Source of the DNA: a virus
Lineage: Duplodnaviria > Heunggongvirae > Uroviricota > Caudoviricetes
Virus record (IMG/VR): IMGVR_UViG_2541047778_000011
Length of the DNA: 25,141 nucleotides
Direction: 5' to 3' (one strand)
The notes under the pieces are model-generated. The model made no database searches. It saw only the letters and a program-made list of their open reading frames with translations, and had not been told where the DNA came from. Positions 4,656-6,514 of this stretch are shown one piece after another; position 1 is the first letter of the stretch, and the number at the start of each line of letters is the position of its first letter. The position numbers were made by a program, and so were the translations under genes.

Positions 4656-4681
4656 TATGCAATTGTTTACTAAAAGTTATT

Positions 4682-4705
4682 AAAAATGGGGCGTGGAAAC
4701 GCCCC
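4682..4705 (-). terminator. Putative rho-independent terminator for the minus-strand porin gene
   Basis: Hairpin GGGGCGT-GGAA-ACGCCCC (4688..4705). On the minus strand it is followed by AUUUUUA (plus-strand A-run 4682..4686). Lies about 140 nt downstream of the porin stop. Confidence 0.4.
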
Positions 4706-4792
4706 CAAAATAAAGGGTAATATATAACAGAAGGTTTATATAGTAAGAAGCAAGGTAGTGCTTCTAAAGGAAGTGGCTTGAGGGCTCCACTT

Positions 4793-4832
4793 ATATGTTG
4801 CGGAGGCAAAGCCTCCCGCAACATATCTTTTT
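4793..4832 (+). terminator. Putative rho-independent terminator on the + strand downstream of Q (candidate tR'-like terminator of the short late leader RNA)
   Basis: Long stem ATATGTTGCGGAGG / CCTCCCGCAACATAT with a CAAAG loop and one bulged C, followed by ATATCTTTTT. Sits 140 to 180 nt after the Q stop and just before the porin stop on the opposite strand. Confidence 0.5.
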
Positions 4833-4843
4833 CGTAAGTCAGA

Positions 4844-5926
4844 TTAGAACTGATAAACCAGACCTACAGCGACGATGTCGTCGGTATCAATACCAGCTGT
4901 TTTGGTAAACTTACTATCGTCAATTAAGTTGATTTTGTAATCAACAAAAGTGGACATGTTTTTATTAAAGTAGTAAGTAGCACCGACATCGACATACTTG
5001 ACTAAGTCTCGGTCACCATGAACACCAAGGTCTTTACCTTTTGACTGAAGGTAAGCAACAGATGGACGCAGACCGAAGTCAAACTGATATTGTGCTACTG
5101 CTTCAAAGTTTTGTGCTTTGTTTGCAATATGGTTATTACCAAAAACGGTCATATTCTGAGTTTCAGAATATGTGGTAGCCAGATAGATATTGTTCGCATC
5201 ATATTTCAGGCCTGCAGCCCATACTTCCGCATTTTTGCCGGAGGCATTGAATTTGCTCTTACCATAGGCGACCTGACCGTCAGTGCGATCTGATTTAGCA
5301 TAGGTTGCACCCACGCCGAATCCTTCATACTCATAAGTAGTGGAGAAACCGAAACCATCACCATTGGCTTCAGTTACGTCAGTGCGGTCATTTTTACCCT
5401 GATACTGAGCAGCAAAGTTCAGGCCATCGACCAGACCAAAGAAGTCGTTGTTACGATAAGTTGCAACACCAGTAGTGCGACCAGTCATGAACACATCTGT
5501 TTGGGTCCAGGTATCACCACCGAATTCTGGCAGAACGTCAGTCCACGCACCGATGTCGTATGCTACACCGTAGTTACGGCCGTAATCGATTGAGCCGTAA
5601 TCACCAAATTTCAGGCCTGCAAATGCAAGACGGGTTTTGTCTTTGGAAGAACCTTGAGATTCAGCACGGTTGCCTTTGAATTCATATTCCCACTGACCGA
5701 AACCAGTCAGTTGATCGTTGATTTGGGTTTCACCTTTGAAGCCAAGACGGGCATAAGTAGTATCACCATCATCTGCATCATTAGAGGAGAAGTAGTGCTT
5801 GGCATTAACTTTCCCGTATAGATCCAGCTTGTTACTGTCTTTATTATAAATTTCAGCTGCCTGAGCAGACATCGCCATCAGTACTGATGCAGCTACAGCA
5901 GAAATTGCCACTGTTAATTTTTTCAT
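4844..5926 (-). CDS. nmpC: OmpC/OmpF-family general porin (NmpC/OmpD-like), intact, with signal peptide
   Basis: 360-aa product from [39 protein letters not shown]... ending in the beta-barrel C-terminal motif ...[14 protein letters not shown] ribosome-binding site upstream of the ATG at 5926. The ORF-track N-terminal extension to 5986 is unlikely to be real. Confidence 0.9.
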
Positions 5927-6352
5927 TGTACGCCCTTTTTTTGAACTATTATTAAAAAATGATGTCACTGCGCGATAAATATTCATCTAATCAATGTGAT
6001 TATTTCAAGATGTAAGTTTTAGTTTCTCATTTAATTTGTGAAGTAGATCTCTATTTTTATCTGAACCTTTTCTATCTAATCCTATTCATGGCTCTTGTCT
6101 GAACAAAAATAAATCTATTAGCTAATTTATATTAATGGCACTTATTTATAAGTGCTCTATAATTCTTTAGCTTAATTTAAACAAACTAAAAATAACATCG
6201 GAAATTATTAACTGGTTATTTGTTGAAGTTTTCTTATGCATTTGTGGTGGTGTTTTGAACACTCGGTGGCATTCTCACAAATATCATTTAGTAGTTTACG
6301 TACGTAAAAAATTGGTTATGCTGTTAAGAGTGGTTACTTCGTCACACAGCTT

Positions 6353-6386
6353 AAACCCGCCGTCGAGCGGGTTTTTCCATTTTTTG
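6353..6386 (+). terminator. Rho-independent terminator about 130 nt upstream of the holin start (second candidate tR')
   Basis: Hairpin AAACCCGC-CGTCGA-GCGGGTTT followed by TTCCATTTTTTG. Confidence 0.55.
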
Positions 6387-6514
6387 AGTCTCGATATTAG
6401 CTGATAACCCAATACCTGAGTTATTCACTGACTCCGAATCTGTTACGTTTCTGCCTTTATTGCGATACGTAGTATCCCCTTAATTTACACCCGCTTTGTC
6501 TGCGAGGTGGGGTT

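Follow-up and report, generated by a model that had tools for sequence, protein, structure and literature searches.

An NmpC/Lc porin cassette between the Q gene and its predicted late promoter in a phage-21-like lambdoid prophage

Where does late transcription begin in a lambdoid prophage when a porin gene on the opposite strand separates the gene of the antiterminator Q from the lysis genes that Q controls? This question was raised by a Caudoviricetes sequence of 25,141 nucleotides (IMG/VR record IMGVR_UViG_2541047778_000011; the whole stretch is called the window below). A sequence-only reading of positions 4656-6514 had described an intact porin gene inserted antisense between Q and the holin gene. 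It had also proposed that Q-modified late transcription must read through 1.1 kb of porin antisense and two terminators before it reaches the lysis genes, so that porin expression would be antagonistic to lytic induction. We identified the locus as the already known NmpC/Lc porin cassette, carried here by a phage-21-like lambdoid prophage. In our view it is very probable that this cassette is a self-contained leftward porin unit, located between the Q gene and the promoter on which Q itself acts.

Position of the late promoter and its relatives

The Q gene (plus strand, 4272-4655) encoded a QuuD-type protein of 127 amino acids with a match to Pfam PF06530 (Phage_antitermQ, E 6.9e-54), a family that was named the Q21 family by Yin et al. 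(PMC9388147). It is a member of this family by the profile match and by its kinship to functionally tested members. Namely, it was 80% identical to the Q proteins of VT2-Sakai and H-19B, and the antitermination activity of H-19B/933W-type Q is credited to Neely and Friedman 1998 in PMC6266700. Its relationship to the solved Q21 structures 6P18 and 6JNX was distant (E 4e-8). A phage-82-like Q was also considered, the rusA and ylcG genes resembling those of phage 82, and was rejected because the phage 82 protein has 230 amino acids and belongs to another family (PF06323). The phage 82 pR', which starts with AAA and has GCC at +15-17, did not match the window either.

The most informative comparison was made with the Shiga toxin (Stx) phage VT2-Sakai, whose depositors annotated a late promoter, a Q-utilisation (qut) site and a rho-independent terminator from the Q stop codon onward. 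In the window, the homologue of this promoter/qut/hairpin segment was found at 6292-6376, about 365 bp past the start codon of the porin and with another 140 bp to the holin gene. Since homology with the Stx-phage Q gene stopped near 4632 (approximately codon 121), the inserted segment, about 4633-6291, lies between Q and the target of Q. Moreover, nothing resembling pR' was found directly after Q: the stretch 4640-4860 occurred only in porin-carrying phages and had no pR' similarity, and the promoter scan gave no promoter-like site on the plus strand of 4656-4843.

The putative late promoter pR' (plus strand, 6295-6322) aligned with the "putative late promoter" of VT2-Sakai and consisted of a -35 element TTTACG (6295-6300) and a -10 element TATGCT (6317-6322). 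A 14-bp perfect palindrome TTTACGTACGTAAA (6295-6308) overlapped the -35 element. Immediately downstream was a conserved start-site core (plus strand, 6325-6345) with a predicted transcription start site (TSS) at about 6329 (+/- 2); its TGGTTACTTC stretch (6332-6341) is likely to be the sigma-dependent pause/qut element. The invariant part of this core, TAAGAGTGGTTAC, occurred once in the 25-kb window, at 6325-6337, and was the same in 7 aligned phage sequences. The distance from the Q stop (4655) to the core (6325) was 1.67 kb, so the promoter did not adjoin the Q gene. Because Q acts in trans, this distance affects the layout and leaves the mechanism unchanged.

The predicted start was placed by homology, and its geometry matched to the nucleotide. 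In VT2-Sakai a distance of exactly 258 nt separated the site 7 nt past the -10 element from the end of the second terminator in the annotation, and the distance from PR' to tR' was reported to be 258 nt by differential RNA sequencing (dRNA-seq) and Term-seq in strain Sakai (PMC7547250). The same work mapped the start by dRNA-seq and described the Stx-phage PR' as constitutively active and terminated early in lysogens (PMC7547250).

The predicted intrinsic terminator tR' (plus strand, 6353-6386) extended from about +25 to +58 relative to the pR' start. It was homologous to the first Stx-phage hairpin after pR', and no other terminator-like site was present between pR' and the holin gene. Its hairpin (6353-6374) had 8 pairs and was followed by TTCCATTTTT, with a folding energy (dG) of about -12 kcal/mol and a z-score of -2.0. 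The sequence-only reading had left undecided which hairpin was the true tR', and the Stx-phage homology answered this in favour of 6353-6386. Judged by their sequences, pR', the pause element and tR' have the make-up of a late cassette, and late transcription is predicted to run divergently from the porin, from a start about 400 bp past its start codon. A late start between 5990 and 6500 had been named in advance as incompatible with read-through from Q, and this is where the comparative evidence points. A 49-amino-acid open reading frame (ORF) on the plus strand (6255-6404) spanned both pR' and tR' and was annotated as "hypothetical protein" in PhiR57_1, ev207 and other phage records. It is probably no real gene, given the promoter and the terminator within its span.

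Relatives of this promoter were collected by an IMG/VR scan with the core motif, which gave at least 120 loci with 66 distinct promoter variants among the matches listed; this scope applies to all counts of relatives given below. The hexamer located 3-8 nt upstream of the core had the form TAnnnT, with A at the second position in 66 of 66 distinct relatives, T at the sixth in 65 of 66 and variable middle positions, a pattern characteristic of a sigma-70 -10 element. In 62 of the 66 a hairpin and T run followed within about 70 nt, in some cases with an unrelated stem sequence. The dyad over the -35 element changed with the clade of the upstream Q protein. It was TTTACG(TA/AT)CGTAAA in the QuuD/Q933W clade and GCGGTCCGC, GCGTACGC, TGTTATAACA, TGGAATTCCA or ATTCGTTACGAAT in other clades, and it was constant within a clade whether Q and pR' were separated by 17 bp or by 1.7 kb. 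These observations suggest the palindrome at 6295-6308 as a candidate Q-binding element (QBE) and the promoter past the cargo as the cognate target of Q.

Among 100 loci with an upstream Q homologue, the core was located no more than 50 bp from the Q stop in 24, and 0.6-2.5 kb separated Q from pR' in the other 76. The long ORFs of this interval were almost all on the minus strand. At least 34 loci of the cargo set carried a porin, and other occupants were Kiwa KwaB, the PDC-S20 KAP NTPase, PDC-M53A, the PDC-M68A HNH nuclease and NA37-family proteins, as well as an alpha/beta hydrolase, lipoproteins and several ORFs without a family match. The same arrangement was present in the annotated phage records PhiR40_1, SfII and Stx2a_1447. 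The porin of the window is one occupant of a recurrent antisense cargo position. As a broader and only tentative proposal, the interval between Q and pR' might be a dedicated antisense slot that holds porin/IpeX units or defence genes interchangeably, with Q finding its promoter through the clade-specific inverted repeat over the -35 element. Such an inverted-repeat element would differ in architecture from the direct-repeat QBE of Q21.

The porin unit and its flanking RNA signals

The porin gene (NmpC/Lc allele, minus strand, 360 amino acids) was intact and occupied 4844-5926 when read from MKKLTV; the program-made ORF list gave 4844-5986 from an upstream ATG. The product matched Pfam Porin_1 (PF00267) over profile positions 1-337 of 337 (E 1.9e-151) and scored 521 bits with the NCBIfam "porin OmpC" subfamily model, whose cut-off is 484, while it remained below the NCBIfam equivalog cut-offs for PhoE and OmpF. 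It was similar in sequence to the solved OmpC, OmpK36, PhoE and OmpF chains across the whole mature length, and the alignment with OmpC structures extended from the first to the last mature residue (mature chains 1-343, E 6e-137). The translation had a 23-amino-acid signal peptide ending in AQA, the L3 motif PEFGGD and a GLVYQF end with the C-terminal Phe. The protein is a general porin of the OmpC/OmpF/PhoE family by its profile match, signal peptide, L3 motif and C-terminal aromatic residue, as had been proposed from the sequence alone. It was 91% identical to Lc of phage PA-2, with the differences and indels grouped in three short segments that we take as surface loops. This identity, together with the antisense site between Q and the S-R-Rz genes, makes it the NmpC/Lc prophage porin.

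Evidence for expression in lysogens came from prophage Perceval of strain LF82, which was 99.4% identical across 97% of the 4200-6800 query. In the LF82 lysogen the Perceval "outer membrane porin NmpC" was transcribed 10-fold above the prophage background and was listed as a moron (PMC9928086). Variable presence, which is another property of morons, was found among the relatives, where 24 of 100 related loci had no cargo and others had different cargo. The earlier description of the porin as a lysogenic-conversion locus was right, and the identification as a lysogenic-conversion moron is long established.

The RNA end of the porin unit was examined with a simple terminator scan that does not allow bulges, and with folding energies and z-scores. 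The scan found 6 terminator-like sites in the region compared with 3.3 +/- 2.0 in shuffles, which was not significant alone; the terminator argument therefore rests on position and conservation. A minus-strand stem at 4688-4705, GGGGCGUUUCCACGCCCC, had 7 pairs, of which 6 were G-C, followed by AUUUUUAAUA (dG -13.8 kcal/mol, z -3.2); the same stem had no U tract on the plus strand. By scan and folding we assigned it as the porin/IpeX intrinsic terminator (minus strand, 4678-4705, with the U tract reaching to about 4678), in agreement with the minus-strand terminator noticed previously. A second, strong hairpin was located at 4793-4832, with its stem at 4793-4826. On the plus strand it had a dG of -21.9 kcal/mol (z -6.5) and was followed by CUUUUUCG (CTTTTT), and on the minus strand it had a dG of -22.5 kcal/mol (z -5.7) without a U tract. 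It contains one bulge, so the simple scan missed it.

The sequence between the porin stop and the minus-strand terminator would form a structured 3' untranslated region (UTR) of about 167 nt (minus strand, 4677-4843), as judged by folding, position and length. The folded stretch 4676-4843 (168 nt) contained five hairpins with a dG of -53.6 kcal/mol (z -6.7). Each of the 50 predicted pairs was preserved in the majority of 7 alleles, and compensatory changes were absent; a covariation analysis, applied to both the 3' UTR and tR', was uninformative because the sequences differ too little. The 3' UTR was 93% identical to those of PA-2 and 434B/DLP12 and was found only in porin-carrying phages.

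According to a review, the small RNA IpeX is part of the porin transcript of DLP12 and PA-2, and it lowers OmpC and OmpF. By position and length, the stretch 4677-4843 would correspond to IpeX, and IpeX activity of this allele may be expected. The lc transcript of PA-2 reportedly carries the same IpeX sequence (Castillo-Keller et al. 2006, J Bacteriol), which would explain the loss of OmpC in PA-2 lysogens. The exact boundaries of IpeX we take to be those of the review and, reportedly, of the same 2006 paper. Another small RNA, svsR of prophage NC-SV (NC101), was considered as an occupant of this locus; it lies in cI and is unrelated.

The hairpins that had been described as bracketing the porin thus were present at 4793-4826, 4688-4705 and 6353-6374, and what changed was the interpretation of the two near Q, which more plausibly belong to the porin 3' UTR (IpeX). 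In particular, hairpin 4793-4826 is better explained first of all as the 5' stem-loop of the 3' UTR RNA. The hairpin and its T run (4793-4832) may also act as a terminator of rightward transcription leaving Q. A plus-strand terminator-like site was present within 350 nt of the Q stop in at least 48 of 75 distinct cargo intervals, a rough lower bound because the no-bulge finder misses bulged stems, including 4793-4826 of the window. The Q and porin units converge over 4678-4832, where, by the predicted terminators, each transcript would cross the hairpin of the other first and the 3' ends are potentially complementary over about 150 nt.

Upstream of the porin, the GC content dropped to 24-29% over about 5900-6300, compared with 40-50% in the flanks. 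The stretch 5927-6350, which had already been recognised as AT-rich, had 29% GC. The promoter scan found no minus-strand consensus match for the porin promoter, and promoter-like matches in the AT-rich DNA were fewer than predicted by shuffles (4 vs 8.1). In K-12 the nmpC promoter is active and is located within 199 bp upstream of the ATG (PMC11677980). A CRP-site candidate for the porin promoter, TGTGA-N6-TCTCT at 6034-6054, was mapped by alignment from the PA-2 lc record J02580. It lay 108-128 nt upstream of the porin ATG and was unchanged in 7 alleles. Catabolite control of Lc is known from the older literature, and the site at 6034-6054 is plausibly its basis. The second "CRP site" of the 1986 PA-2 record mapped to 6329-6349, which is the pR' pause region, and we think that this label predates knowledge of the pR' promoter type.

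A different signal in the same DNA was a candidate sigma-E promoter on the plus strand (5941-5975), GAACTA-N16-TCACT, with a start at about 5975. It was placed by primer mapping: Pasqua et al. 2021 describe the DLP12 lysis promoter as cloned from "-121 to +650" relative to the start of Rueggeberg 2015, and the forward primer mapped to 5854 of the window, which puts +1 at 5975. The motif was invariant in 7 alleles. It would correspond to the published RpoE-dependent promoter of the DLP12 lysis cassette, which is reported in PMC7918800 to be under RpoE as well as Q control. The start placed in this way is separated from the porin ATG by 49 nt and points away from the porin, and the candidate promoter is probably antisense to part of the porin 5' UTR or promoter. 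Both this candidate and pR' were located to the right of the porin coding sequence.

The inverted repeat GCACTTA-TTTA-TAAGTGC was present at 6138-6155, where it had been suggested as a regulator site. A perfect inverted repeat of at least 7 bp occurred in 38% of dinucleotide shuffles of the AT-rich stretch, and the left arm was GCTGTTA in all six other alleles (PA-2, 434B/DLP12, ev099, mEp332, Turner and ev243). The repeat was 212-229 nt upstream of the porin ATG, just beyond the 199-bp promoter region of K-12 nmpC. It is probably fortuitous. We also considered whether a promoter-like site at 6135-6163 (ATGGCA-17-TATAAT, 10/12) and the 6353 hairpin about 200 nt downstream could form a lambda-style pR'/6S unit. 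This was rejected because the homology with the Stx-phage promoter was at 6295-6322 and because 6140-6290 was the least conserved intergenic part; 6135-6163 is kept as a promoter-like candidate.

What was observed here comprises the gene identities and homologies, the positions and folds of the elements and their co-variation among relatives, and from this the following course of events can be proposed. The porin would be transcribed leftward from its own promoter, which would lie at most about 200 bp before the ATG within AT-rich DNA that has a CRP-type site, and transcription would end at the minus-strand terminator (4705-4678). The 167-nt 3' UTR would correspond to IpeX and would lower host OmpC and OmpF, and therefore the cassette would swap host porins for the phage porin, which is lysogenic conversion. 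The hairpin and T run at 4793-4832 would most likely halt unmodified early transcription after Q, avoiding a collision with the porin unit. On the other side of the porin, pR' would give only an RNA of about 50 nt without Q. Diffusible Q, acting in trans, would load onto RNA polymerase at pR' and let it pass tR' into the holin, endolysin and spanin genes.

Alternatives and the state of this prophage copy

Several points weigh against the proposed arrangement. The TSS, the pause site and termination were all placed by homology, and terminator efficiency and the Q-binding site are likewise predicted. The pR' hexamers matched the consensus at 8 of 12 positions, under the threshold of the promoter scan, and the tR' hairpin is a modest one by the energy and z-score given above. 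In Stx phages, polymerase evidently gets past the first hairpin at least some of the time, since the mapped PR' transcript extends to the second terminator, at 258 nt; the window had no second terminator after pR'. Additionally, the commonest porin-linked allele of tR' had GCTGG in place of GCGGG, a G-to-T change that reduced the hairpin from -12.2 to -6.5 kcal/mol and left an alternative weaker stem. The co-variation of the dyad with the Q clade could partly reflect co-inheritance of linked modules. As to IpeX, its assignment drew on position, length and the review, together with what the primary paper reportedly showed. The ipeX gene was not annotated in RefSeq MG1655, and Rfam gave no IpeX hit; at a permissive threshold there were two chance-level matches, sau-19 and Trp_leader. 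The GCTGG allele of tR' was observed in PA-2, ev099, Turner and many IMG/VR loci.

The rival explanations have to be considered together with the state of this copy, for which the functional phage PhiR63_2 (99.6% identity over 95% of the window) served as the reference. Positions 1-718 were the 3' part of a truncated integrase gene and 719-2025 were an IS3-family element with a transposase ORF at 1096-1986. At 2026 the sequence resumed in ninB. Compared with PhiR63_2, about 12.25 kb was missing, including xis, exo-bet-gam, kil, cIII, N, cI, cro, cII, O, P and ren, and pR was also gone with the deleted early region. The exact junction was found in only 3 complete E. coli genomes, while 42 had at least 80% query coverage. 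The prophage is not inducible because the early region is deleted, and any antagonism with an SOS-induced lytic programme is therefore moot in this copy.

In intact relatives a collision is still conceivable by another route, and we regard it as possible, though on balance doubtful, that transcription from pR, antiterminated by N, passes Q and the 4793-4832 hairpin and collides with the porin unit or silences it by antisense during lytic growth. In lambda, N-modified polymerase ignores intrinsic terminators, which counts in favour of this scenario. In PhiR63_2, an intact relative, the N gene lies upstream with the same orientation, and the 3' ends of the converging Q and porin units overlap by about 150 nt. 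However, this scenario is inapplicable to the window, from which N, cI, pR, O and P were deleted, and for the relatives it would be an addition to the arrangement with pR' beyond the porin rather than an alternative to it.

The lysis genes might also be driven mainly by host-controlled promoters, either the sigma-E candidate with its start at 5975 or sites such as 6135-6163, with pR' and Q being vestigial. The reported RpoE regulation of the DLP12 cassette, the agreement of the published +1 with GAACTA-N16-TCACT, the 10/12 match at 6135-6163 and the absence of the Q-inducing early region all speak for this possibility. However, transcripts from such starts would still have to pass tR'. Moreover, Q, pR' and tR' were intact and identical to the copies of functional phages, promoter-like matches fell short of the shuffled expectation, and PMC7918800 lists Q control too. 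We consider this explanation unlikely.

Least probable is that pR' directly follows Q and that read-through of both hairpins and of porin antisense silences the porin on induction: the textbook Q cassette does have its promoter directly after the Q gene (bioRxiv 10.1101/651190), as do phage 21 and the Stx phages, and a plus-strand hairpin with a T run is present after Q, but 4656-4843 had neither a promoter-like site nor pR' homology and came only with the porin, the conserved pR' core was found solely at 6325-6337, the pairing of dyad and Q held across cargo sizes, and 76 of 100 loci had cargo in between. With the sole pR' module at 6292-6376, beyond the porin, the proposed passage of Q-modified transcription through 1.1 kb of porin antisense and two terminators was not supported, and the same applied to the antagonism between porin expression and lytic induction, as pR' diverges from the porin.

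For the copy in the window, in which the porin unit would lie between Q and pR' as described above, activity is probably confined to the porin unit and host-driven expression. Most likely to be still in use are the porin/IpeX unit, Bor and the gene of a lipoprotein with a TonB C-terminal domain.

Relation to known phages and significance

From about 2026 onward, the window was the right arm of a lambdoid prophage. The order of its genes was Dam methylase (2376-2963), NinX (3097-3480), RusA (3687-4049) and ylcG (4046-4186), followed by Q and the antisense porin. The lysis genes consisted of an S21-type pinholin/antiholin with a dual start at Met1 and Met4 (plus strand, 6515-6730; Pfam Phage_holin_2_1, E 2e-35), an R21-type endolysin (plus strand, 6730-7227; Pfam Phage_lysozyme, E 1.3e-45) and Rz/Rz1 (7212-7685 and 7444-7626). 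The holin homologues of 434B and phage 21 carry the annotation S71/S68, and the lysozyme homologues of the same phages are annotated as signal-arrest-release (SAR) endolysins. The Bor gene (7717-8010) was antisense, on the minus strand, and the terminase and structural genes came after it. A small lipoprotein-like ORF on the plus strand (8491-8817) had a TonB C-terminal domain (Pfam TonB_C, E 7e-13), and the same gene was present in phage 21. This ORF and Bor have counterparts among the listed expressed morons of LF82 Perceval ("TonB fragment" and Bor).

The segment 4200-6800 was 100% identical to phages ev017 and PhiR57_1 and to many E. coli genomes, and its best match reached at least 99% identity in 522 E. 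coli genome records. In the identical phages and genomes the genes were annotated as Q/QuuD, NmpC/OmpD/"porin OmpC", EssD holin and RrrD lysozyme.

The closest well-known case was DLP12 (qsr') of K-12, which has the same order rusA-ylcG-quuD-nmpC(antisense)-essD-rrrD-rzpD/rzoD-borD and flanks that were 90-98% identical, including the 3' UTR and the stretch from pR' to tR'. In contrast to K-12 nmpC, which has IS5 after codon 346, the porin of the window was intact and was a different allele. The deletion of the early region was a separate, IS3-family-associated event that also set the window apart from DLP12. The lc locus of PA-2 (protein 2; J02580, 1986) was similar on both flanks (93-97%), in the annotated CRP site, in the 3' UTR and in the site upstream of the lysis genes. 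It differed in porin length by five residues, the difference being given as a five-residue shorter porin, and in having the weakened tR' allele GCTGG.

The Stx phages Q933W/H-19B had a homologous -35 element, dyad, -10 element, start region and first hairpin. In these phages, however, pR' and the Q stop overlap, and a sense cargo of tRNAs and stx follows tR', whereas the cargo of the window was antisense and upstream of pR'. The Stx leader extends over 258 nt to the second terminator and yields StxS; the window had the first hairpin only and no homologue of the StxS part.

Phage 21 (OL657228.1) was 99.1% identical over 79% of the window, including the S21/R21 lysis genes. Its Q belongs to the same Pfam family, of which phage 21 is the founder and the representative with solved structures, and similar to the window it has a QBE, a TSS, a pause element and a terminator within +50, the annotated terminator extending from +3 to +50. 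Nevertheless, its Q was only distantly related (E 4e-8), the promoters had no sequence similarity, and the QBE of Q21 is a direct repeat between the -35 and -10 elements, whereas the candidate of the window has inverted-repeat symmetry and lies over the -35. Between tR' and S, phage 21 carries two tRNA genes and no porin. The Q21-pR'21-tRNA segment of phage 21 was replaced in the window by a QuuD-type Q, the porin and a 933W-type pR' module, and the late-control region was a clear case of module exchange.

Similar to the lambdoid morons bor and lom (Hendrix and colleagues), the porin cassette is an independent unit with its own terminator that is variably present and expressed from the prophage. 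There was no difference of principle from these morons, of which it is one of the earliest described examples. Knowledge of the nmpC/lc porin at this site goes back to the mid-1980s, and that of its 3' UTR RNA, IpeX, to 2006.

As a discovery the locus itself is of little importance, and hundreds of sequenced E. coli genomes contain identical copies. What is useful is the correction, namely that the porin and late transcription would diverge without collision and that 6353-6386 would be tR'. What is possibly new is the generality of the cargo slot between Q and pR' and the clade-specific dyad as a candidate Q-binding element. The candidate dyad concerns the Q933W group, a medically relevant one through which Shiga toxin expression is controlled. 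If the slot and this type of QBE prove to be undescribed, the window would be one instance of a general rule for the place of lysogeny-expressed genes in lambdoid phages.

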